A DNA stretch of 60,966 nucleotides from an uncultured Candidatus Saccharibacteria bacterium (GTDB lineage: Bacteria > Patescibacteriota > Minisyncoccia > SW-4-49-11): positions 1 to 60,966 of the forward strand of contig CAZWIJ010000008.1 of the NCBI GenBank assembly GCA_964633865.1. The letters run 5' to 3'. A program made the position numbers and the translations under genes. Below the pieces are notes generated by a model. It worked only from the letters and a program-made list of their open reading frames with translations. It did not search any database and had not been told where the DNA came from. Below, one piece after another: positions 1-35,381 of this stretch (position 1 is the stretch's first letter; each line of letters starts with the position of its first letter).

Positions 1-73
1 AATCAAGAGTTGGAATTTCTATAATATGTGTCTTTATTCCATTTATAAGATATTGGTATATTTTTGTCTGCAT
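1..73 (-). CDS. Possible 5' end of a gene running off the left edge (partial)
   Basis: The minus-strand ATG at 73-71 opens a frame (MQTKIYQYLINGIKTHIIEIPTLD...) that stays open to position 1. A promoter lies upstream at 105-132. Only 24 codons are visible, so no function can be called. Confidence 0.3.
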   Translation of the reverse strand, partial: MQTKIYQYLINGIKTHIIEIPTLD

Positions 74-104
74 AAAAAATTGTTTATTATTATTAATTAT
101 CTTT

Positions 105-132
105 ATTATATCATTTAGTATAATTTAATCAA
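105..132 (-). promoter_or_regulatory. Sigma70-type promoter for the left-edge gene
   Basis: On the minus strand it reads TTGATT (132-127), a 16-nt spacer, then TGaTATAAT (-10 at 110-105). Confidence 0.4.
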
Positions 133-186
133 TAAAAGTTGTTATTAAATATAATTAACTCATGTATTTAAATCAAAATTTATTAC

Positions 187-215
187 TTGACATTTTATCA
201 GAAATTACATATTAT
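187..215 (+). promoter_or_regulatory. Sigma70-type promoter of the YcaO fusion gene
   Basis: TTGACA at 187-192, an exact 17-nt spacer, and TATTAT at 210-215. It sits about 60 nt upstream of the ATG at 276, with a GAGGGA RBS at 262-267. Confidence 0.6.
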
Positions 216-222
216 AAAAATT

Positions 223-240
223 AGTAATTTTAAAATTACT
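223..240. promoter_or_regulatory. Perfect 18-bp palindrome at the predicted transcription start (operator or 5' stem-loop)
   Basis: AGTAATTTTAAAATTACT is a perfect inverted repeat. It starts about 8 nt after the -10 hexamer. Confidence 0.4.
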
Positions 241-275
241 TTAGTGTACTTTAAAAATTTGAGGGAAACTAAAAG

Positions 276-2435
276 ATGAGTCAAATACAAGATATCTCTT
301 TTCAACCTTTTGCTTGCTGTATTTGGGACTACTGTAAAAATTCTCAAACACTCACAATATTCTTGGTGAATGAAGAACAAGATGTAAAAATAGAAGGTGA
401 AGATACAGAAGATATTTACAATTTTTTAAAAAGTTGTAATGGATTAAATACTATTAGTGAGATTTCTAATGAGTTACAAATTGATCTACAAAAATGTATT
501 TTAATATGTGACTTTTTATTACAAGAAAAAGCTATATATGATTCTAGACAATTATATAAATGGTTTTTAACTTGTTCTCAAAATCCAAATTATTTTTCTA
601 GATCTATAACTAGACAAGATGCTATTGATATTCCTTTAGAAAAAAATACTGAATACAATCAGAATCCTGAGTACTCAACAAATTCTTCATTTGAATCAAT
701 ACTAACTAACCTTTTCCTTAAAAGAAAAAGTTGTAGAAATTTTGATAACAAAAAACTATTAAGCAAAGAATCTATAATGTTTTTACTTAAAGGAATGCTT
801 AGAGTTGAAGATGTTTGGACATTACCATCAGCAGGAGGTATGTATTCATTTGTTCCAATAGTAATATTCCCTAGAGAAGTTGAGGATATTAAAAAAGGAG
901 TCTATGCCTACAATCCTCAGACCTACTCTCTATACAAATGGAGAGATGAAGATTATTTTCAATCTATTGGTTGGTATGAAAGACTTTTAGATTCAAAACA
1001 TTTTGTAGCATGTGCTACTATGATAGTATTATTAACATCAAATATTTCCAAAATTGATAAAAAATATTCAAATCGAGCTTTAAGATTTGCTCTTATTGAA
1101 GCCGGTCATATAGCTCAGAATGCAATATTATTATCTACTGAAAAAGAAATTGGTTGTTTAGAGTACGGAGGATTTGATGATTTGGTTGCAGAAATGATTG
1201 TTGATTATAAAAAATTAACAACTCTAACCTGCTTGATATTTGGAGTTCCTGAAGATACTTCTAAGATTGATATTAAGGAGAATTCATTGTATCAGCTTGA
1301 GCACAAATACCCCCACTTACATAGTTCTCTTATCAGAACTAAAAGATCATTAGAAGAATATACTTCTTATTCTTTAGGTTATGTATCTAGAGAACACTCA
1401 CAATATACTGGATTTGGTTCTGGAACAACGAGTGAAGAAGCTTCTTTGAAATCCATAGTTGAAAGTATCGAAAGAGAAGTCTCAATGGGCTTATGGTTTG
1501 ATAAACAATGTTCTATAAAAGACCTGGATTATCCAAATTTTAACCAAAATGAAATTTGGGGATATCATAAAAAAGTTTTCAGTCTAACTTCCTTGAAAAG
1601 ATTAAATGAAACTGATATTACTGATTGGGTTTTAATGAAAAATATCAAAGGAGATGATCTAAAATATGCTTTATCAGATATGATATTTTACGGACATAAT
1701 CCAAAATATGGCTTTAGTAATTCAAACGGAATAGCTGGAGATATTAATTTAGATAGAGCATTTAAATCAGCTTTATTAGAGTTAATCGAGAGAGATTCAT
1801 TTTTAGTTATTTATCATACTAAGAGGGTTGTTAGTCAAATTGATTTTAAAATGTTACCAAAATGGTTACAGCTACAAATCACTAGTTTGAAGAAAATTGG
1901 ATATAAAACAACTGTTCTTGACATAACTTTAGATAGTATACCAGTTTATTTGATTTGCATTCATTCTACTGAAAAACACCCTTGTTTTGTCTGTGGAGCT
2001 TCAGCAGGGTTTGAATACGAAAGTATTCTTTTAAAAGCATTTAGCGAAGCTGAATCTATGCTGTTAAGTTGGCAAGATAATTGTGAAGAACCGTTGCATG
2101 AACCAGATGTTAATACACCTCACAAACATGCTTCTCTTTATATGAATCCTATTTATTTAAAGAATATCTCTTGGATATTAAATGCACCTGTTACAGATAC
2201 TATATCCACTAATAAGTTTTGTTTAGAGGATTTAATTGAAAAATACAACCCATATATTGTAGATTTATCATCAAAAAATAAATCTAGTTTTATTAAGGTT
2301 GTTAAGGTCTTAAGTTCTGAATTACTTCCTATGTACTTTGGGTTTGGATTAGAACCAATAAACCATTCTAGAATTAATAAACTTGGTCTAAAGTGGATTA
2401 ATAAATATCCTAGTTTTCCTCATTTCTTTTCTTAA
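276..2435 (+). CDS. Three-module fusion: RRE-like wHTH, SagB-type FMN dehydrogenase and YcaO cyclodehydratase domain
   Basis: 719-aa ORF. Residues ~40-90 look PqqD/RRE-like (EDIYNFLKSCNGLNTISEISNELQIDLQKCILICDFLLQEKAIYD). Residues ~140-335 carry SagB/nitroreductase motifs (LKRKSCRNF, PSAGGMYSF, ALIEAGHIAQN, GGFDD). Residues ~370-719 carry YcaO motifs (GFGSGTTSEEASLKSIVESIEREVS, SNGIAGDINLDRAFKSALLELIERDSF, C-terminal PSFPHFF). Confidence 0.85.
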   Translation: MSQIQDISFQPFACCIWDYCKNSQTLTIFLVNEEQDVKIEGEDTEDIYNFLKSCNGLNTISEISNELQIDLQKCILICDFLLQEKAIYDSRQLYKWFLTCSQNPNYFSRSITRQDAIDIPLEKNTEYNQNPEYSTNSSFESILTNLFLKRKSCRNFDNKKLLSKESIMFLLKGMLRVEDVWTLPSAGGMYSFVPIVIFPREVEDIKKGVYAYNPQTYSLYKWRDEDYFQSIGWYERLLDSKHFVACATMIVLLTSNISKIDKKYSNRALRFALIEAGHIAQNAILLSTEKEIGCLEYGGFDDLVAEMIVDYKKLTTLTCLIFGVPEDTSKIDIKENSLYQLEHKYPHLHSSLIRTKRSLEEYTSYSLGYVSREHSQYTGFGSGTTSEEASLKSIVESIEREVSMGLWFDKQCSIKDLDYPNFNQNEIWGYHKKVFSLTSLKRLNETDITDWVLMKNIKGDDLKYALSDMIFYGHNPKYGFSNSNGIAGDINLDRAFKSALLELIERDSFLVIYHTKRVVSQIDFKMLPKWLQLQITSLKKIGYKTTVLDITLDSIPVYLICIHSTEKHPCFVCGASAGFEYESILLKAFSEAESMLLSWQDNCEEPLHEPDVNTPHKHASLYMNPIYLKNISWILNAPVTDTISTNKFCLEDLIEKYNPYIVDLSSKNKSSFIKVVKVLSSELLPMYFGFGLEPINHSRINKLGLKWINKYPSFPHFFS

Positions 2436-2458
2436 ATAGAATAATCAAAAATTATTAT

Positions 2459-2492
2459 GACAAGGTATTTTTATAACACCTTGTCTTTTTTT
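2459..2492 (+). terminator. Intrinsic terminator after the YcaO fusion gene
   Basis: Stem GACAAGGT (2459-2466) pairs with ACCTTGTC (2478-2485) and is followed by T7. The right arm overlaps the 3' end of the convergent gene. Confidence 0.6.
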
Positions 2493-3331
2493 ATGTCTAA
2501 CCATAATTGCCATATTTCTAAAGGCTCTTTTTTAGTTATTTCTATCCATGAAAATTTATATTTTTCTTGAATATCTCTAATTATAATATATCCTAAAGAA
2601 TAACCTAACCACTGAGGATGAATTTCATCTCCCATAAATAAAGCATCATACTGAGAATCTTCTAAAAAAGCATTTTGATTCCAATTATTAGCAAATTCAG
2701 GAACAAAAGATATAAGAGTTTTTTCATACTCTTTATTTATTTTTTCGATCCAAGGTGATTTTTTACCCCCTACAATCTCATCACGAAAATATTCTGCCAA
2801 ACCCTCAAATATTAATATCTGTCCTATTGTTTCCCAATTATGATATTCATGAATAATTACATGGTGATATTCATGAGCAATAGTGTCTTGTAAACTTTTT
2901 TTCCAATTTTCAGTAGATGTATTTATACTAATAAAAATAGTACCACCTATTGTAGGAGCATATCCCATAACTCCATCTAATTCCTCTAAAAAAAATTTAT
3001 AAAATGTTGGTAAAACTATAATATTTATTTTCTTTGGAAGAGGAAGTTTTTTATTAGATTTTATTAGTATGTCTTCTATTATCAACTTAATTTCACTTTC
3101 ATTATAATTTATAACTGGTATTTTGTCAGGAAGTTGTGTTACATTCCAAAAATATTCAGAATCATCTTGTGACAAACTACTAAATAATTCAGGAAATAAA
3201 ATTTTGGCTTCATTTCTAATATTATTACTTATTAAATTTGAATCAAAATTATATTTTAAAAGAGACAAAAAAGAAACAATATTATAATCCATAGATAATT
3301 TATTGACATTAATTAATAATAATGATACCAT
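2471..3331 (-). CDS. Putative zinc metalloprotease (HExxH; DUF2268-like)
   Basis: 286-aa ORF with AHEYHHVIIHEYH, which contains an HExxH motif. It is convergent with the YcaO gene. The family assignment rests on motif recall only. Confidence 0.5.
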   Translation of the reverse strand: MVSLLLINVNKLSMDYNIVSFLSLLKYNFDSNLISNNIRNEAKILFPELFSSLSQDDSEYFWNVTQLPDKIPVINYNESEIKLIIEDILIKSNKKLPLPKKINIIVLPTFYKFFLEELDGVMGYAPTIGGTIFISINTSTENWKKSLQDTIAHEYHHVIIHEYHNWETIGQILIFEGLAEYFRDEIVGGKKSPWIEKINKEYEKTLISFVPEFANNWNQNAFLEDSQYDALFMGDEIHPQWLGYSLGYIIIRDIQEKYKFSWIEITKKEPLEIWQLWLDIKKDKVL

Positions 3332-3408
3332 TTATTTAATTGATAAGCAAGTTATTTATAAAAATCTTGCCAACTATATTGTTCTATAAAATTCAAGGAT
3401 TAACCTTT

Positions 3409-3513
3409 ATGAAACTCAAAATAATTGTCTCAAAAGTTCAAAAAAACAGTAGTAATGCTGTCGCTATGAAGTCTGTCGGTAAATGTGGTGGAGATAAATG
3501 TAAGTTGGGTTAA
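3409..3513 (+). CDS. Unannotated 34-aa ORF; candidate RiPP precursor peptide
   Basis: Hand translation gives MKLKIIVSKVQKNSSNAVAMKSVGKCGGDKCKLG. An AAGGA RBS lies about 10 nt upstream and its own hairpin terminator follows at 3535-3566. It sits between the two peptidase genes. The C-terminus is Gly/Cys/Lys-rich. Confidence 0.5.
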   Translation: MKLKIIVSKVQKNSSNAVAMKSVGKCGGDKCKLG

Positions 3514-3534
3514 ATAAAAATAATCTAATTATAA

Positions 3535-3566
3535 GGAGTGGTTTTTATAAATCACTCCATTTTTTA
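3535..3566 (+). terminator. Intrinsic terminator after the 34-aa ORF
   Basis: GGAGTG (3535-3540) pairs with CACTCC (3553-3558) and is followed by a T-run. Confidence 0.55.
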
Positions 3567-3641
3567 TTATACAAAATTTATTATAATAAAACAAACTATT
3601 ATATAACATGGTTTATTAATTTACAAGTTTAAATCAAAGAC

Positions 3642-4670
3642 TTATTTTAGAGAGGTGAAATATTCTTGAAAATCTTGTGTTTGTAAAAGTTTTATTTTAT
3701 AATAAATATCTTCCAGAGAATTATTCTGGATATCTGTTATTTTATTATACAATTGCAACCTATTTAATGTAGATTTATAATTTATTCCGTCAATATCCAT
3801 TCCTAATCCTGATAAATATATTTTTTTTATATAATCAAAAGCTTTTTTAAAGCTTTTATATTCAAATAGATTAAGATTTATATCAATATCAGAAATAATA
3901 GAGAAATATTTTTTATTTCCTCTATTAAAAATTAGGCTCTCCATATTATTTTTATATACTACTTCTTCCAACCAAGAAAGAAATATATCTTGCGTTATTG
4001 TATAATTAATTAAATATTCATATATTAGCTCTTTTGAGGAAGTTTTCATAATTTTCATTTCACTTTTTTTAATTGCTTCTATAGAACTTTTTTGTTTAAA
4101 GATATTTTGAAAGTCTTTTATCCAATCATCTTGCCAATTTCCTATAAAATAATTTTCTATAGAACTTTTTTGTACTGAGGTATTCCAATATTCTTGAGCT
4201 TCCTTACAAATTTTATAAGTAAGTTCTCCTTCTTCCCAATTACCAACTAATGAGTGAAGTTTTGGAATATATTTTTGGACTCTCTTTTTATGATAAAAAG
4301 ATGAGCTTTCAGTATATTCTTGAATTTCTTCATAAATTTCTCTACTTACAAAAGAAAAGTCTTTCTCTTGTAAATCAGAATTATAAATCATGTTAGATAA
4401 GAACACTTTGACTAATTCTATGTCTTTTATATCAAACTGGGCATAAATTCTTACAGAATTGGGATCTGTGACAGCCTCTAATTTCCCAAATAAATTATAT
4501 ATATCTTCTGAAAGCTTATTATAATCTTTATCTTTATTCCCATAAAACAAAAGGTGTTCAGCTAAATGGGTAAACCCTTGTTGGTCTCTAGTTTCTTTCT
4601 GTGAAGATATCTGTATCTCTAACATTAATCCAAGTGTATATTTCCAATTTAAATGATGATATTTTATCAT
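3642..4670 (-). CDS. M16 (pitrilysin/insulinase) family metallopeptidase, short form
   Basis: 342-aa ORF with the inverted zinc motif HxxEH in GFTHLAEHLLFYGN near the N-terminus, as in M16 peptidases. Confidence 0.7.
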   Translation of the reverse strand: MIKYHHLNWKYTLGLMLEIQISSQKETRDQQGFTHLAEHLLFYGNKDKDYNKLSEDIYNLFGKLEAVTDPNSVRIYAQFDIKDIELVKVFLSNMIYNSDLQEKDFSFVSREIYEEIQEYTESSSFYHKKRVQKYIPKLHSLVGNWEEGELTYKICKEAQEYWNTSVQKSSIENYFIGNWQDDWIKDFQNIFKQKSSIEAIKKSEMKIMKTSSKELIYEYLINYTITQDIFLSWLEEVVYKNNMESLIFNRGNKKYFSIISDIDINLNLFEYKSFKKAFDYIKKIYLSGLGMDIDGINYKSTLNRLQLYNKITDIQNNSLEDIYYKIKLLQTQDFQEYFTSLK

Positions 4671-4697
4671 GATAGGTATATTTTATATAAGTAATTT

Positions 4698-4729
4698 ATA
4701 AAAATAAGGAAGTAATATGTTACTTCCTT
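4698..4729 (-). terminator. Intrinsic terminator of the 48-aa gene
   Basis: A perfect 10-bp stem, AAGGAAGTAA (4706-4715) with TTACTTCCTT (4720-4729). On the minus-strand RNA it is followed by ATTTTTAT. Confidence 0.6.
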
Positions 4730-4746
4730 GAAACGGTATTTATAGA

Positions 4747-4893
4747 CTATTTATTGAAAGAGCTTCTGCCTTTATCTCTTCCCTTGTCTTTCTTAGAATG
4801 TTCTTCACCATTCTGATGTCCAACATTTCTTTCTCGATTAGCATTCTGCTGATTTCTGGCAGCTTTCTTTTCCCAACTGTGTTTTTTAGCCAT
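4747..4893 (-). CDS. Small basic hydrophilic protein (48 aa), unannotated
   Basis: Hand translation gives MAKKHSWEKKAARNQQNANRERNVGHQNGEEHSKKDKGRDKGRSSFNK. It has its own promoter (4924-4953) and terminator (4698-4729). It falls below the ORF-track length cutoff. Confidence 0.5.
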   Translation of the reverse strand: MAKKHSWEKKAARNQQNANRERNVGHQNGEEHSKKDKGRDKGRSSFNK

Positions 4894-4923
4894 CTTAACT
4901 TTTTTCAAATAAAGTACATATTC

Positions 4924-4981: not shown

Positions 4982-7144
4982 CTACAACTCCACGAAAAAA
5001 TCTGAACCAACATTTTCTTCACTTTCAAACCAAAATCTCCCATTATGTAGTTCTACAATTCTTTTGGTCAAATATAATCCTAAGCCTGAACCATCTATAT
5101 AAACCATCTCTCCATTTTTTCCTCTTGTGAATTTATTCATTACATTTTTCCTATCTGTCTTTAATATACCTATTCCTGTGTCTTTTATCTCTAATAATAC
5201 TTTTCCATTGATAATGTCTATATTTATCTTAATCTCACCTTTTTTAGTATATCTAAGTGCATTATCTACTAAACTTTGTATTGCTTTCTTTATATATTCT
5301 CTATTTCCTATTACTAATATTTCTTCTTTCTTTGTTAAATTATTAAATATTAATTTCAGATCGTGTTTTTTTGCTAAATCTTCATAAGATTCTTTTACTT
5401 CCTTTATTATACCTATAATATCAAATTCTTCTTTTCTATTTAATTGAAAGTTAACACTGTCTATCTCTGATGATAATAAGATATCATCTATTATATTGCT
5501 AAGCTTGATACTTTTCTCATACATTCCACTTATGAATTTATTTTTATCTTCTGGTGTCCATTTATCAAATTCATCTTCTACCATCATAGATAAAGATCCT
5601 TTTATTACTGTGGTAGGTGTTCTTAATTGATGTGATGCTATTGTTAAAAATTCATCTTTCATCTTGATTAATTTTTCTAATTTTTTTGCCTTCTCTAATA
5701 TATCTTGTGTTTGTATTTTTACTTTTTGATTTAATGTACGATTAAAATCATTTATTTCTTGATATAATAATGCATTCTTAATTGCTATTGCTGATTGTTG
5801 TCCTAAAATTTTTATTAACTTTAAATCTTGTGTAGTAAACACTTCTTTTTTGTCTTTTTCTCCTATTAAAAATATTCCTAATAACTCTTTTCCATATATA
5901 ATGGGATAATATATTTCATATGGTGTTCTCATTATATTCTTATATATTAATTGTATTTCTTTATTTTCTGTTTGTTCTACTATCAATTTTATTTCGGATC
6001 TTATTATTAGATCCTTGCTTCTTCTCATTTGTGCTATAAAATTTTTATCTCTTAAAAATTGATATTTCTTATATTCTAATATTGGATTTGCTGATATAAT
6101 CTTACCATCTTTATTATATAAAATAATTTCCATCTGCCCTAAATGAAAGTTCTGTATTAAAGTATTCTGTATCAAATTTACTATATCATCTATTTTTATT
6201 ATTGTAGTTAATCTCTTTGTCAAATCTTCCAGTATATTCTGATTCAAATATACTTCTGAGAAAAAATTATTCTGTACAAATCTCAATATTATTGACTTAA
6301 ATGGTGTAAATAAAATTGTGATTATAATAAAAATGACTCCCGTTAAAACATATGACCTTATATCATAAATATCTCCAAATATTCTTTGTTCTAAACCTAA
6401 AATAGCATAAAATATTATATACATTGAGATTAATGCTATCCAATATATTATAAATTTATTTATAACTAGTCTAATATCTAGGAATCTATATCTTACGATT
6501 GCATAAGCAACAAATCCTATCATAATTAATCCTGATATAGGTCCAAATATATATGCATATGGCAAATCTATAAAAAACGATATTATATTAGTAAAAATTC
6601 CAAATGATAATCCTAAAAATGATCCTATTGATACATACTTTATTTGTACTTTAATAATTCCAGTAGATACTTTAAATACATTATGTAAATTTTTAAATGC
6701 TATAGATAAATATCCTAGAAAATAAATAAAAATAATATAATACAACCATCCAACTTTCACTTCCGTCCCCCAATCTCTAAAAATTACTTCTGAGACATTG
6801 GCATCTGTAAAGGTAAATAATAGTATAAATAAAATGGGAAATAGTAATAGTATTTGTAACTTACGAGTTATTTTAAATTTTTTATTTATTAATTCATAAA
6901 ATGCATAACTTAATAGTACAAAATAATATGGGATAAATGATGCAGGAAGAACAACTATCCTATTTGAAAATAATGTGTAATTACTAGGTATATCTGAAAG
7001 TATTAAAGTAAAGACCCAAAAAGATACTGCTAAGGTAAATCCGAGAAAATTTTTATTAATATTACTTTTAGGATTTTTTTTATAAACTAATATTCCCGTA
7101 ATAAAAGTTGTAATACAAGACAATATATAAACCAACAATATCAT
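4982..7144 (-). CDS. Membrane sensor histidine kinase (multi-TM N-terminus, GAF-like middle, HisKA and HATPase_c)
   Basis: 720 aa. The N-terminal ~270 residues are hydrophobic. H-box TIASHQLRTPTT, and C-terminal G-boxes DTGIGI and GSGLGLYLTKRIVELHNG. Confidence 0.8.
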   Translation of the reverse strand: MILLVYILSCITTFITGILVYKKNPKSNINKNFLGFTLAVSFWVFTLILSDIPSNYTLFSNRIVVLPASFIPYYFVLLSYAFYELINKKFKITRKLQILLLFPILFILLFTFTDANVSEVIFRDWGTEVKVGWLYYIIFIYFLGYLSIAFKNLHNVFKVSTGIIKVQIKYVSIGSFLGLSFGIFTNIISFFIDLPYAYIFGPISGLIMIGFVAYAIVRYRFLDIRLVINKFIIYWIALISMYIIFYAILGLEQRIFGDIYDIRSYVLTGVIFIIITILFTPFKSIILRFVQNNFFSEVYLNQNILEDLTKRLTTIIKIDDIVNLIQNTLIQNFHLGQMEIILYNKDGKIISANPILEYKKYQFLRDKNFIAQMRRSKDLIIRSEIKLIVEQTENKEIQLIYKNIMRTPYEIYYPIIYGKELLGIFLIGEKDKKEVFTTQDLKLIKILGQQSAIAIKNALLYQEINDFNRTLNQKVKIQTQDILEKAKKLEKLIKMKDEFLTIASHQLRTPTTVIKGSLSMMVEDEFDKWTPEDKNKFISGMYEKSIKLSNIIDDILLSSEIDSVNFQLNRKEEFDIIGIIKEVKESYEDLAKKHDLKLIFNNLTKKEEILVIGNREYIKKAIQSLVDNALRYTKKGEIKINIDIINGKVLLEIKDTGIGILKTDRKNVMNKFTRGKNGEMVYIDGSGLGLYLTKRIVELHNGRFWFESEENVGSDFFVEL

Positions 7145-9005: not shown

Positions 9006-9857
9006 TTATTTTTCTAAAAATTCTTTTATTATTAAATCTTGTAATCTTTTTGAAATACCATTTAAATGATGGTCTACATAAGGAAAATAATGAAATTCTA
9101 TATTTTTAAAATCATTGTTAATCAAACTATGATAAAATGCTATTGTTTTTAAAGGATTAACATTAATATCTAATCCCCCTTGAATAAGTAATATTTTTGT
9201 ATTTTTATTGATTTTTGAAAAATTATAAAATGGAGATCTCTTTAAATTTTCTGATTTAGATTCTACATCATACATATCTTTTCTAAATTCTTTTAACTCT
9301 GGTCTCTTTTCATAACTATCTTCTAAATCTAACTCTGGATTAATAATTATAGCTTTTTTGATCCAATCTTGACTTTTAAGTAAATTTAGAGCCATCAGTC
9401 CACCTCTACTTGCTCCATAAATATTTATATTATTAATATCGGCATTTGGAATTTCTTTTATTACTTCTTTTAAATTAATTAAATCTTTTAGATCCATACC
9501 TGATAATTCATCTTTTCCTTCACTTCCATCATTTCCAGAATATTGGGTTGTAATAACTATAAATCCCCAAGAAGCTATTCGAGATAAAGGAAATGTTATT
9601 ACTCTATCATTTATTATCCCAAAATTTTTACTTCCACCTCTGGCATATATTAAGACAGGTAACTTTTTAGTAGAATCTTTTGGAGTAACAATATAACCTT
9701 TGATTTTTCTTCCATCAGAATTATACCAAATCTCATAACATTGAACTGAATTTATTATAGATATTAGATTTTCCTTTTTTTCCATTGACAATTCTTGAAA
9801 AAAATCTTTTTTTAAAAATTCTTCATAATTGATTTTAGTTTGAGTTATAATTTTCAT
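9006..9857 (-). CDS. Alpha/beta hydrolase (S9 prolyl-oligopeptidase/dienelactone-hydrolase-like), paralog A
   Basis: 283 aa. Nucleophile elbow IYGASRGG, with a C-terminal D and H (VDHHL). Clear paralogy to 12301-13143 (LPVLIYARGGSKNFGII versus LPVIIYNRGGSKDYGII). Confidence 0.7.
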   Translation of the reverse strand: MKIITQTKINYEEFLKKDFFQELSMEKKENLISIINSVQCYEIWYNSDGRKIKGYIVTPKDSTKKLPVLIYARGGSKNFGIINDRVITFPLSRIASWGFIVITTQYSGNDGSEGKDELSGMDLKDLINLKEVIKEIPNADINNINIYGASRGGLMALNLLKSQDWIKKAIIINPELDLEDSYEKRPELKEFRKDMYDVESKSENLKRSPFYNFSKINKNTKILLIQGGLDINVNPLKTIAFYHSLINNDFKNIEFHYFPYVDHHLNGISKRLQDLIIKEFLEK

Positions 9858-12300: not shown

Positions 12301-13143
12301 TTATAAATTTTTCTTTATAAAATCCACTCCTCTTTCTAAAACAAATTTTTTATACAAAGGCAAACAATGTTGATCATCTAATATATGTAAATTATAATCT
12401 ATCCCTGCTTTAGATAATTCTAAAGCTAGTTTTAAAGTATCTTCCAAAGGAGCTCTGTCGTCTTTTGTTCCATGAAAAATAATTAAAGGGACATTTTTCG
12501 GAAATTTATCAACCAAGTATAATGCCGATCTCTTTTTATTTTCTAAACCTGAATCAACATCATACATATCTCTTCTAAATTCTTTTAATTTAAGTCTCAA
12601 TTTATAATTATTCTCAATATCTGTTGGAGCACAGTTAATTACTCCTGATTTTATCCAATTTACCTCATTAATAAGAATATATGTCATCATACCACCTCGA
12701 CTATCTCCCCACATACTTATTTTAGATTCATCACTAATTTCAGATTCTTTGATACATTCATATAAATCAATTACTGATTGTATATCTTCTTTACCACCGC
12801 ATTCATCCTTACCTTCACTACCTGCATTACCTGTGTATTGAGAACAAAAAACACTAAAACCTGATAATGCTAATGGGATTAAAAGATTTATTATGATACG
12901 AAAGTCAATTATACCATAATCCTTTGATCCTCCTCTATTATAGATTATAACCGGTAGCTTTTCTGTTGCATATTTAGGATATAAATGAAATCCATTCACA
13001 TTATAATTCTGTGATTTATATGTTATATCAAAAATTTCAGTTGCTTCAATTTGTTTCAATATCTTTTTAGCTTGAACTTCTCCTCTTCTTTTTATCAAAT
13101 TCTCTTTTAGATTTCTGTGAAATGTATAAGGATTTTTTTTCAT
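12301..13143 (-). CDS. Alpha/beta hydrolase (S9-like), paralog B
   Basis: 280 aa. Nucleophile elbow MWGDSRGG. Collinear similarity to 9006-9857. Confidence 0.7.
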   Translation of the reverse strand: MKKNPYTFHRNLKENLIKRRGEVQAKKILKQIEATEIFDITYKSQNYNVNGFHLYPKYATEKLPVIIYNRGGSKDYGIIDFRIIINLLIPLALSGFSVFCSQYTGNAGSEGKDECGGKEDIQSVIDLYECIKESEISDESKISMWGDSRGGMMTYILINEVNWIKSGVINCAPTDIENNYKLRLKLKEFRRDMYDVDSGLENKKRSALYLVDKFPKNVPLIIFHGTKDDRAPLEDTLKLALELSKAGIDYNLHILDDQHCLPLYKKFVLERGVDFIKKNL

Positions 13144-33263: not shown

Positions 33264-35381
33264 TTAACCTTTGTTTGTTCTTTTTTCAATAATAGCTTGT
33301 TGAATATTATTTGGAACTTGTTGATAGTTACTAAACTCCATAGAAGCATTTCCTCTTCCTTGAGTCATAGATCTCAATGTTGTTACATAACCAAACATCT
33401 CTGATAAAGGTACTTTAGATGAAACAACTTTTAATCCTCCCATTCTATCTTCCATCTCTTCGATAAGTCCTCTTCTAGCATTTAAATCTCCAACTACATC
33501 TCCCATGTATTGTTCTGGTATTACAACTTCAACCTTCATAATTGGCTCTAATATAACAGGAACAGCTTTTTTAACTGCAGCTGAAACTGCCATAGAACCT
33601 GCTATTTTGAAAGCTGATTCTGATGAGTCAACATCATGATAAGAACCATCATAAACAGTAACCTTAACATTTATAAGCTGATATCCAGCAATAACTCCTC
33701 TCTGAATAGATTCCTTAACTCCTTTCTCTACAGCAGGTAAGTATTCTGATGGAATAGCTCCTCCTTTAATTTCATTAACAAATTGAAATGTTTCTTGAAC
33801 TTCTCCTTCCTCTGCTTCTTCTGGAATATAAGGTTCAACTTTAGCATAAACATCACCATACTGTCCTTTTCCTCCAGATTGTTTGATATATTTACCTTGA
33901 GCTTCTGCTTTAGCTGTAATAGTTTCTTTGTAAGCTACCTGTGGTTGCCCAACATTAACCTCCACTTTAAACTCTCTTTTCATTCTATCCACAATAATAT
34001 CTAAGTGAAGCTCTCCCATACCTGCAATCAAAGTATCTCCTGTAATATCATCACTAGTTACTTTTAAAGTAGGATCTTCTTCAGATAATTTATGCAAAGC
34101 TAAGCTCATTTTTGTTTGATCAGCTTTAGTTTTAGGCTCCAACTTAATCTGAATAACTGGCTCAGGGATAGTCATTCTTTCCAAAATAATAGTATCTTTC
34201 TCATCACATAGAGTATCTCCTGTTGTAGTATTTTTTAACCCAACAATAGCACCTATATCTCCTGCTTTTAGCTCTGATACTTCTGATCTTGAATTTGCAT
34301 GCATCTTAACAAGTCTAGAAATTCTTTCTTTTTCACCTTTTGTTGAATTAAGAACATATGAACCACTTTTCAATATTCCTGAATATACTCTAAAGAAAAC
34401 CAATTGCCCGATATAAGGATCTGAAACCACTTTGAAAGCTAGTCCAGCCAAAGGAGCATTATCATCAGCTTCTCTTTCAATTTCTTTTTCTTTATCTTTA
34501 ATAGAAGTACCTATAGCAGCAGGAATATCTAGTGGAGAAGGTAAATAATCTATAACTGCATCTAATAGCTTTTTAACAATTGCTGTTCTAGAGTCCCCTC
34601 CCAAGATAGGAAAAATCTTACTTTCTAAAGTCCCTTTCCTTATAGCATATTTTAGTTCCTCTTCTGACAAAACTCCATCATTCAAAAATAATTCTATCAA
34701 TCTATCATCTACCTCAGAAACTTTTTCCATTAATTCCATTCTGTACTCTTCAACCTTTTCTACCATATCAGCTGGAATAGGTGCTTCGATAATATCAGTC
34801 ATCCCTGTTTCATCTGAATAAACAAATGCTTTATTTAAAACCAAATCAACAATTCCTTTGATTCCTTGTTCAAAACCAATAGGAAGAGCAACTACCACTG
34901 CATTTTTAGATAATCTTTCTTTAATTGAATCAACTGATTTATAAAAATCTCCTCCTGTTTGATTAATTTTATTAACAAAACAAATTCTAGGTACTTTATA
35001 TCTATCAGCTTGTCTCCAAACAGTTTCTGATTGAGGTTCTACACCCATTTTCCCATCAAATACAGTGACAGCTCCATCAAGAACTCTAAGAGATCTCTCT
35101 ACTTCCATTGTAAAATCAACATGTCCAGGAGTATCAATAATGTTAATTCTATGATTATCCCAATAACAGGTTGTTGCTGCTGATGTAATAGTTATACCTC
35201 TTTCTTGTTCTTGTTCCATCCAATCCATAGTAGCAGCACCATCATGAACTTCTCCTATTTTATGAGATACTCCTGTAAAATAAAGTATTCTTTCTGTTGT
35301 AGTAGTTTTTCCAGCATCTATATGAGCAATAATTCCAATATTTCTACTATTTTTTAATGAAATATTTTTTTCTTCTGACAT
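33264..35381 (-). CDS. fusA: Elongation factor G
   Basis: 705 aa. [30 protein letters not shown]-type NKIN. Confidence 0.97.

Follow-up and report, generated by a model that had tools for sequence, protein, structure and literature searches.

Gene content and host of the locus

The DNA considered here is a stretch of 60,966 nucleotides (nt), referred to below as the 60-kb window, and positions without a locus label are window coordinates. The window encodes a 719-amino acid (aa) protein in which a domain resembling the recognition element (RRE) in pathways to ribosomally synthesized, post-translationally modified peptides (RiPPs), a SagB-type dehydrogenase and a YcaO cyclodehydratase follow one another in a single chain. 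This fusion gene is accompanied by a protease gene of the DUF2268 family and by a gene for a 34-aa peptide. The locus is a genuine compact RiPP gene cluster of the linear azol(in)e-containing peptide (LAP) type in a bacterium of the Candidate Phyla Radiation (CPR)/Patescibacteria. The elements by which a LAP cluster is recognized, namely a YcaO protein, a dehydrogenase and an adjacent short precursor with a Cys/Ser/Thr-rich core, are present in the window and conserved across loci. All four open reading frames (ORFs) of a first-pass annotation of this DNA are present at the positions it had assigned to them. The genes and the domains of the enzyme are as follows:

276..2435, plus strand: gene of the 719-aa tri-domain azole synthetase (RRE, SagB dehydrogenase, YcaO), from Pfam/NCBIfam, structural model, Foldseek and family
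303..575, plus strand: N-terminal RRE-like winged-helix domain, ~residues 10-100, from model, Foldseek and profile
699..1244, plus strand: SagB/McbC-type azoline dehydrogenase domain dependent on flavin mononucleotide (FMN), ~residues 142-323 (PF00881; TIGR03605, 76.2 bits)
1416..2432, plus strand: YcaO ATP-dependent cyclodehydratase domain, residues 381-719 (PF02624; ExxER, ELxERD, tail PSFPHFFS)
2471..3331, minus strand: DUF2268 HExxH zinc metallopeptidase, putative leader peptidase (PF10026, E=9e-28; HEYHH)
3409..3513, plus strand: precursor peptide gene, 34 aa, MKLKIIVSKVQKNSSNAVAMKSVGKCGGDKCKLG (ribosome-binding site, terminator, orthologues, enrichment of analogues)
3642..4670, minus strand: short M16 (HxxEH) peptidase, adjoining and probably not in the system (PF00675 N-terminal domain only; HLAEH, E=8.7e-13)

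The window has a G+C content of ~25% and is an ordinary piece of chromosome, encoding PNPase, elongation factor G (EF-G) and a class I aminoacyl-tRNA synthetase. EF-G (33264-35381, minus strand) shares 82% identity with proteins named Candidatus Parcubacteria and Candidatus Elulimicrobium and ~65% with those of other Patescibacteria; the host is therefore a CPR bacterium. The closest relatives of the fusion protein point to the same radiation, and the AT-rich host that the first-pass annotation had supposed is borne out.

Genes recurring around the fusion enzyme

All non-overlapping ORFs within 5 kb of the enzyme were clustered in 65 loci (loci outside the window carry L numbers). Only two families recur widely, the fusion itself in 64/65 loci and DUF2268 in 40/65, with a distant HExxH protein in 3 more. 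Histidine kinases (8 loci), peptidase-ABC exporters (6) and radical SAM/SPASM enzymes (5) are sporadic.

The first-pass annotation had seen no E1-like/Ocin-ThiF partner. This holds for the whole window as well as for every fused-type locus: neighbour clustering and a ThiF-like hidden Markov model (HMM), the seed of which was confirmed by NCBIfam ThiF and TIGR03882 matches, revealed no E1-like or ThiF-like partner within 5 kb of any fused-type enzyme, nor any in the 60-kb window. Genes of the E1/ThiF type are confined to four loci with the classical architecture (L057, L058, L074, L083) and never accompany the fusion, and a hidden partner of this kind was rejected.

Catalytic domains of the fusion enzyme

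The order of RRE, SagB and YcaO within one chain, read in the first-pass annotation from the letters of the DNA, is real and conserved according to Pfam, a 60-sequence alignment, structural models and Foldseek, and the motifs quoted there are present in the 719-aa ORF. In the profile searches the YcaO assignment stood clearly, with Pfam YcaO (PF02624) matching residues 381-682 at 97.8 bits against a cutoff of 25.7. The dehydrogenase passed Pfam Nitroreductase (PF00881, residues 149-302, 45 bits against 23.5), whereas the NCBIfam SagB model (TIGR03605) fell narrowly short of its cutoff, at 76.2 against 78.4 bits; a homologue from an oral Saccharibacterium (L041) exceeds that cutoff with 98.3 bits. 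The SagD model (TIGR03604) is the top-scoring NCBIfam model for the protein, yet at 94.3 bits it lies far below its cutoff of 219.25, and relatives of the fusion score 106-138 bits.

The AlphaFold2 model of the full-length protein has a predicted local distance difference test score (pLDDT) of 88.6 and a predicted TM-score (pTM) of 0.82. In Foldseek, the whole model matches LynD, TruD, MusD, McbD and archaeal YcaO proteins together with the oxidases BmdC, ThcOx and McbC; 341 columns are aligned to BmdC, approximately the length of that protein, with a TM-score normalised to the target (TMt) of 0.64. By sequence, the solved structures nearest to the dehydrogenase part are the azoline oxidases BmdC (E=1.8e-11) and McbC, and those nearest to the YcaO part are MJ1094, MusD, TruD and LynD, with MJ1094 (E=5e-9) as the best single match.

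The catalytic residues of YcaO, on which the first-pass reading depended, are in place. The acidic motifs E396, E399 and R400 (ExxER) and E502, L503, E505 and R506 (ELxERD, E502-D507) are invariant in the 60-sequence alignment, and they presumably correspond to the published ATP/Mg2+-binding residues. In the dehydrogenase, K263 and Y264 of the Lys-Tyr motif (KYSNR) are nearly invariant in the 60 sequences, as are R150, R154 and F156 of the RxSxRxF motif (R150, S152, R154, F156). A Lys-Tyr motif next to FMN is typical of SagB/McbC-type azoline dehydrogenases, and RxSxR is the FMN-phosphate motif. The canonical C-terminal motif of azoline-forming YcaO proteins is PxPxP. The extreme C-terminus of the 719-aa protein, YPSFPHFFS, is only a degenerate variant of it, and phmmer alignments to LynD, TruD and McbD end short of the C-terminus, so that the tail is not alignable to their PxPxP. 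P715 and H716 are conserved family-wide, and the family consensus ends PxxPHFFA.

These features bear on whether the enzyme makes azoles at all. The YcaO domain could instead perform other backbone chemistry, such as thioamidation, amidine formation or ATP-dependent cleavage, with the nitroreductase domain catalysing something other than azoline oxidation, for example formation of a dehydroamino acid. The non-canonical tail is compatible with such chemistry, the best solved match of the YcaO domain, archaeal MJ1094, is thioamide-forming, and the protein weakly matches TIGR03266 (McrA thioamidation). Nitroreductase domains of RiPP clusters can form dehydrophenylalanine (PMC12636437), and MusD is reported to have YcaO peptidase activity (PDB 7u58). 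However, no TfuA, other thioamide machinery or sulfur-delivery gene recurs among the neighbours in the 65 loci, a result obtained with no TfuA-seeded search; the dehydrogenase bears the Lys-Tyr motif, and among solved structures it is most closely related to the azoline oxidases BmdC, McbC and ThcOx; the best NCBIfam match is a SagD model of the thiazole/oxazole-modified microcins (TOMMs); and the family cores are dominated by Cys, Ser and Gly, as in known LAPs. We regard such other chemistry as decidedly unlikely, and the chemistry of the locus is expected to be conventional.

The N-terminal RRE-like domain

The AlphaFold2 model of the N-terminal domain (pLDDT 91) contains strands within residues 11-39, helices at 44-52, 60-67 and 71-83 and a strand at 87-89, that is, a layout of three strands followed by three helices. 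The best Foldseek matches of this model in the PDB are RREs, namely those of PbtF (8t19; probability 0.99, TMt 0.63), McbB, ThcOx, PqqD, TbiB1, CteB and MccB. Their E-values are modest (0.06-0.4), as expected because the domain has only 85 residues; among the matches of the predicted structure, the enrichment for RREs is clear. A 42-sequence profile of residues 1-108, compared with the sequences of solved structures, matched LynD 10-82 (E=0.011), TruD 9-80 (0.13), MusD (0.14) and PqqD (0.24) at ranks 1-3 and 5. The matched parts are the leader-binding RRE segments, and the match is weak in E-value terms even at its best of 0.011. A 5-sequence N-terminal profile returned only designed helical repeats and importins from the PDB sequences, and Pfam PqqD matched neither the 719-aa protein nor four homologues. 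Positions G56, I63, D89, H98 and P104 are nearly invariant across 60 homologues. The model, the Foldseek matches and the 42-sequence profile indicate that the N-terminus of the fusion has an RRE fold; the first-pass assignment of a PqqD-type RRE is upheld as to the fold, and the Pfam match to PqqD that would go with it is missing.

The RRE-Finder paper noted RREs that are joined to the dehydrogenases of LAP, cyanobactin and thiopeptide clusters and suspected them to be vestigial and possibly inactive (PMC7470986). The same may be asked of the present domain: it could be vestigial or structural, with the enzyme reading the core directly or needing an unlinked host factor, in which case it would not be self-sufficient. 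The missing PqqD match agrees with this view, and partner-independent YcaO proteins are thought to exist in the bottromycin and trifolitoxin pathways (PMC4603692). Set against it are the conservation of the domain throughout the family, with its nearly invariant positions and well-modelled fold, the strand-like leader motif shared by the precursors, and neighbour clustering, which found no other RRE-bearing protein in the loci. A vestigial domain is unlikely in our view, and a leader-binding RRE within the enzyme is the reading retained below.

The candidate precursor peptide

Two further features frame the gene of the 34-aa peptide:

3395..3399, plus strand: ribosome-binding site AAGGA of the peptide gene, 9 nt before the ATG, read from the sequence
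3535..3558, plus strand: intrinsic-terminator-like hairpin and T-run after the peptide gene, with a 10-bp stem and 4 G-C pairs, then ATTTTTTATT

Terminator-like sites in the 5-kb region number 7 against 1.1 expected. The leader is proposed to span ~residues 1-22, with a strand-forming stretch LKIIVSKV followed by an AMKS motif, and the putative core is ~VGKCGGDKCKLG with two Cys residues (Cys26 and Cys31) only. Orthologues of the peptide are encoded in L003 (MKLNVQVTKVQKKIVSTATMKSIGKCGGDKCKATA) and in the 96%-identical strains L091 and L092. Three of four nucleotide changes are synonymous, both against L003 over the core region and against L091/L092 over the whole ORF.

Small Cys/Gly/Ser-rich ORFs lie directly beside the fusion or the protease gene in most loci. 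Candidate precursors include the following:

L001: MTSKSPLKVTTKPHDQAKSSHAMAKSGGGGGSCSHTGCNCRAPVAVPAK
L013: MKNTKTVKVTVKSYKAVADPGAARTMCSSNGCNSSCGRCSVGKEQ
L028: MKNPKKFSWKATSKEKPISGTIVCQEQCSSGGGGNGKCGTGK
L041: ...MKRLLNITRTPYRATHLNAASNCGGASCGSGCGGGCGG...

The N-termini of the candidates have in common a strand-like motif of alternating hydrophobic residues, after which K/R-P-Y/H often stands, and their C-terminal cores often contain G-K/R-C-G. Under a strict rule (two or more Cys, and Cys/Ser/Thr/Gly making up at least 50% of the 20 C-terminal residues), 39 of 752 ORFs within 1 kb of the gene block qualified, whereas in the remainder of these loci 6 of 1114 did so (odds ratio 10, p=1.6e-10). Qualifying ORFs stand beside fusion or DUF2268 genes in 35/65 loci. 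The first-pass annotation had pointed to a 34-aa Cys-containing ORF with its own ribosome-binding site and terminator; being conserved, with analogues enriched ~10-fold, it is a credible precursor. Small ORFs and peptidases, the neighbours by which that annotation proposed to judge syntenic loci, both recur beside the fusion.

In the window, as in L003, L001, L014, L034, L040 and L024, the core is preceded by an AMKS-like motif, and at a guess this region may be the site of leader cleavage. The candidate precursor of L024 (8099-8221), beside a fusion/DUF2268 pair, has no Cys (MKKASRRSGTPFRVIVRPRQSAVRAMKSGDSSGQSAQSKD) and a core with only Ser, and oxazol(in)e formation or a different substrate would therefore be implied there.

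The small number of Cys residues in the core also raises the thought that the 34-aa ORF is incidental or regulatory and that the enzyme modifies a protein or peptide encoded elsewhere. Some TOMM precursors, such as that of heterocycloanthracin, are encoded remotely (PMC4603692), and protein targets such as McrA and uL16 are also reported for YcaO enzymes. This is highly unlikely given that the ORF has a ribosome-binding site and a terminator, that it is shared with L003, L091 and L092, where the differences are mostly synonymous, and that analogous ORFs are strongly enriched beside homologous enzymes. The 34-aa peptide is accordingly treated below as the substrate.

The DUF2268 protease and the M16 peptidase

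The HExxH protease next to the fusion in the first-pass annotation is a conserved partner of the enzyme: in 37/53 single-polypeptide loci, a DUF2268 gene lies within 360 bp of the fusion. The protein encoded at 2471-3331 matches PF10026 at 97.5 bits against a cutoff of 23.6. In 26 cluster-associated homologues, the HExxH motif (H153, E154, H157), E176-G177 located ~20 residues downstream, and GYxxG are invariant. The solved sequences nearest to the DUF2268 profile are those of zinc proteases, namely lugdulysin (E=8e-4), a glutamyl aminopeptidase of the M1 family and an M48 peptidase. An identity as an alpha-ketoglutarate HExxH oxygenase was rejected, the protein having no NCBIfam match to that family.

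The M16 peptidase gene, with a terminator-like site upstream of it, fared differently:

4729-4706, minus strand: terminator-like site upstream of the M16 gene, from the hairpin scan

The first-pass annotation had placed this peptidase in the system as one of a protease pair. A tblastn search found no M16 homologue in 85 other loci (L001-L085), and in L003, with a 58%-identical fusion, no M16 match follows the peptide gene up to the contig end ~210 bp on. The detectable relatives fall into two groups. The 96%-identical strains (L091, L092) keep the whole arrangement, and M16 adjacency is kept only there. The homologues with 60-71% identity have unrelated flanks and no RiPP genes: Mg-chelatase/ComM-like and L27 genes in L089 and L090, and ABC, FeS-assembly and Bro-N genes in L086-L088. 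A second maturation protease of the PqqF/G type was rejected on these grounds, and the M16 peptidase is probably a chance neighbour. With M16 as a bystander, the system has one dedicated protease rather than two.

Proposed mechanism of action

Starting from the domain identities, the catalytic motifs, the N-terminal fold and the conserved triad of precursor, fusion and DUF2268 genes observed here, a mechanism can be proposed by homology with YcaO cyclodehydratases, SagB/McbC dehydrogenases and RREs, whose biochemistry is established. The 34-aa precursor would be translated, and its leader stretch LKIIVSKV would dock as an extra β-strand on the N-terminal RRE of the 719-aa enzyme. Using ATP, the YcaO domain would activate the backbone amide before each core Cys (GKC, DKC), and cyclodehydration would yield thiazolines, which the SagB-type FMN domain would oxidise to thiazoles with a net change of -20 Da per Cys. 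The DUF2268 zinc protease would cut off the leader, possibly near the conserved AMKS motif, and a small lysine-rich bis-thiazole peptide would be released. Since the RRE resides in the same chain, no E1-like (C) or Ocin-ThiF-like (F) partner would be needed.

It is quite probable that the locus is a minimal LAP/TOMM-class RiPP cluster on a CPR chromosome, in which a partner-less RRE-SagB-YcaO synthetase and trimming by DUF2268 give a small cationic bis-thiazole peptide. A wider proposal, that the fusion is a self-sufficient azole synthetase and, with DUF2268, constitutes the standard small-peptide weapon or signal of the ultra-small CPR episymbionts, including oral Saccharibacteria (L041), is tentative, and we judge its chances to be somewhat short of even.

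Several findings count against the proposed mechanism. To the sub-cutoff SagB and SagD scores, the degenerate and unalignable tail, the weak RRE matches, the suspected inactivity of RREs fused to dehydrogenases and the two-Cys core described above are added four further points. Among the neighbours of the fusion in the 65 loci, neither a transporter nor an immunity gene is conserved. Some HExxH proteins of RiPP clusters are oxygenases and not proteases (PMC12636437). A role of DUF2268 as RiPP leader peptidase is not described in the literature consulted, an absence that is not proven. Finally, the strain represented by L092, with an M16 protein 96% identical to that of the window, has an in-frame TAA in the fusion gene (L092:2762-4921, minus strand, equivalent to 276-2435) where the window has GAA (codon E445), which divides the called gene into ORFs of 444 aa and 266 aa; the genes of the peptide and of DUF2268 are undamaged in it. 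The stop could be a real nonsense mutation or an assembly error, and the locus may therefore be decaying in some lineages.

Distribution and architectures of the family

A word-indexed homologue search retrieved only 6 relatives of the fusion (24-59% identity), the closest of which is named 'Minisyncoccia bacterium'. The impression of rarity left by this search was overturned by an exhaustive profile search, which gave 987 cluster representatives at E<1e-30 and at least 150 representatives of 50%-identity clusters at E<1e-110. Nearly all of the latter are ~700-750 aa long and match the profile from position 1-35 to 719, and these end-to-end matches establish the three-domain layout as common. 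The homologues carry generic database names such as 'YcaO-like family protein', 'SagD family component' and 'hypothetical protein'.

A scan of one genome per species yielded at least 80 loci. Because one SagB motif alone served as the seed and the loci are the matches listed, the taxonomic proportions are indicative only. Most of the best genome matches listed are Patescibacteria, and the full-length fusions among them come mostly from Saccharibacteria, Paceibacteria/Parcubacteria, Yanofsky-, Kaiser- and Magasanikii-bacteria. One full-length fusion (L041) belongs to the human oral Candidatus Nanosyncoccus nanoralicus (Saccharibacteria). In loci of Uhr- and Moranii-bacteria (L032, L067) the gene reads as two or three ORFs. 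One Saccharimonadales genome has two fusion loci ~320 kb apart (L012 and L017, both on contig JBOHNX010000001.1), one of which contains two tandem DUF2268 genes (L017:8329-9638).

A minority of the fusions is found elsewhere, in metagenome-assembled genomes (MAGs) of Clostridia, Proteobacteria and Bdellovibrionales and in one Pacearchaeota MAG. Two records labelled by strain and not as MAGs also contain a full-length fusion: Achromobacter sp. UMC71 (L066:5509-7689, WP_183004813.1) and the cyanobacterium Oxynema sp. CENA135 (P0166, WP_200669400.1). The Achromobacter fusion ends FPHPFN and lies in a high-GC, different neighbourhood; DUF2268 is absent from this locus, and no small ORF there is obviously Cys-rich.

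Other architectures are present as well. In L045, L046, L048, L050 and L052, the same order is split between an RRE-SagB gene (~320 aa) and a YcaO gene (~505 aa), and the four non-CPR loci L057, L058, L074 and L083 show the classical order of ThiF-like, YcaO and SagB genes. The split and classical loci provide material for tracing the origin of the fusion and the timing of partner loss.

In a Clostridia-type sub-clade, an ABC-F gene lies directly 3' of the fusion (L005:2706-4166, L021:8084-9541, L025:5156-6613). The core in this sub-clade is ...QQCGSGGCGGGAACGGNCGSGGGSGCGAG, and DUF2268 is absent. The ABC-F protein resembles the Lsa family and scores 456 bits with the NCBIfam model 'ribosomal protection-like ABC-F', above its cutoff of 380, which suggests that at least some of the products may be ribosome-targeting antibiotics with self-immunity.

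Other features near the locus

Two candidate control elements precede the fusion gene:

187..215, plus strand: sigma-70-like promoter candidate before the fusion gene (TTGACA, 17 nt spacer, TATTAT; 11/12 matches)
261..265, plus strand: ribosome-binding site GAGGG of the fusion gene, 10 nt before the ATG, read from the sequence

The promoter candidate is weak evidence because shuffled sequences yield as many such sites, with 38 found in the AT-rich region against 37 expected from shuffles.

Just past the M16 gene, 4982-7144 (minus strand) encodes a 720-aa multi-pass membrane histidine kinase (GAF, HisKA, HATPase) with no adjoining response regulator; in L001, a response-regulator/kinase pair is located upstream. 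A regulatory link between the kinase and the fusion is possible but unproven. Between the kinase and M16 genes lies a 53-aa, very basic ORF (4747-4908, minus strand; MKKVKMAKKHSWEKKAARNQQNANRERNVGHQNGEEHSKKDKGRDKGRSSFNK), and L091 and L092 have a called gene of 48 aa in the corresponding position. We also note two paralogous S9/prolyl-oligopeptidase-like hydrolases, encoded at a distance of a few kb (9006-9857 and 12301-13143, minus strand), which showed no link with RiPP genes in other loci.

Comparison with known systems

LAP clusters of CPR bacteria were described bioinformatically by Sharrar et al. in 2020 (mBio, PMC7298704), who reported 110 clusters in 93 further CPR genomes, with a nitroreductase adjoining YcaO in 89/110 clusters. 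The host radiation is the same as here, as is the combination of YcaO, nitroreductase, peptidase and adjacent precursor, and the split loci L045, L046, L048, L050 and L052 fit their description. In contrast to the fusion locus, their clusters have separate YcaO and nitroreductase genes and an 84-aa precursor, and the paper makes no mention of an RRE-SagB-YcaO polypeptide, an RRE, the identity of the peptidase as a DUF2268 protein or the missing C/F partner. The LAP class had thus already been noticed in CPR bacteria. The first-pass annotation had considered such loci rare in streamlined genomes; LAP-type loci are recurrent in CPR (PMC7298704), dozens appear in the genome scan and the fusion family is large, and the claim therefore fails for the class.

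The canonical LAP/TOMM synthetases McbBCD (microcin B17), SagBCD (streptolysin S) and BalhBCD/PznBCD likewise combine a YcaO protein with an FMN dehydrogenase bearing the Lys-Tyr motif; they recognize the leader through an RRE, as proposed for the fusion, and act on Gly/Ser/Cys-rich cores. McbC and McbD are structural matches of the fusion model, and the RRE of McbB is a top match of the N-terminal domain. These synthetases need an RRE-bearing E1-like C or ThiF-like F protein that potentiates the YcaO protein (PMC4603692), and none is present at the fusion locus. The fusion further differs in having the RRE placed before the dehydrogenase, in its single chain and in its sub-cutoff TIGR03604/TIGR03605 scores.

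In cyanobactin biosynthesis, LynD, TruD and PatD comprise RRE, E1-like and YcaO domains. LynD and TruD are the best structural matches of the whole model, and their N-terminal RRE segments are the best profile matches of the fusion N-terminus. ThcOx, which contains RRE-like domains and a nitroreductase domain, is a precedent for an RRE fused before an azoline oxidase. In contrast to the fusion, cyanobactin pathways divide cyclodehydratase and oxidase between two proteins, and an E1-like middle domain is retained in the heterocyclase; the dehydrogenase of the fusion takes the position, between RRE and YcaO, that the E1-like domain has in LynD-type fused cyclodehydratases. Neither PatA/PatG proteases nor macrocyclisation, both features of cyanobactin systems, are found here.

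Bottromycin BotC/BotCD and trifolitoxin TfxE resemble the fusion in that no E1-like or ThiF-like partner is encoded (PMC4603692). They differ in being stand-alone YcaO proteins, with neither RRE nor dehydrogenase fused to them, and in their precursors and products. A TfxB/TfxC pair, by which the trifolitoxin-like 'tiarin' clusters are defined (bioRxiv 10.64898/2025.12.02.691738), is absent at the fusion locus. BmdC, the thiazoline oxidase of the bacillamide nonribosomal peptide synthetase (NRPS), is by sequence the closest solved relative of the dehydrogenase domain. Its substrate is an NRPS intermediate bound to a carrier protein rather than a ribosomal peptide, and it has no YcaO protein fused to it.

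A TOMM survey and a LAP review list C-D fusions only, with E1-like, ThiF-like and TfuA proteins as partners of YcaO (PMC4603692; PMC7136475). No RRE-SagB-YcaO or SagB-YcaO single polypeptide was found described in the literature consulted (including PMC4603692, PMC7136475, PMC7470986, PMC12710340 and PMC8939145), an absence that is not proven. The locus belongs to a large, mostly-CPR LAP family and is unusual in its all-in-one synthetase, which lacks a partner, and in its dedicated DUF2268 protease.

Implications

If the proposed mechanism is correct, the fusion, binding the leader through a domain within its own chain, would exceed all described thiazole-installing enzymes in compactness, and its freedom from partners would test the rule that azoline-forming YcaO proteins require a C or F protein. 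It would also be a handy one-gene tool for peptide engineering. The Achromobacter sp. UMC71 and Oxynema sp. CENA135 homologues are possible experimental entry points. The conserved pairing would place DUF2268 in a functional context, that of RiPP leader removal, for the first time. Next to nothing is known of the molecules secreted by CPR/Patescibacteria, whose genomes are tiny and whose cells live attached to those of a host; recurring across many CPR classes, the three-gene module is therefore a strong candidate for the source of such a secreted molecule.

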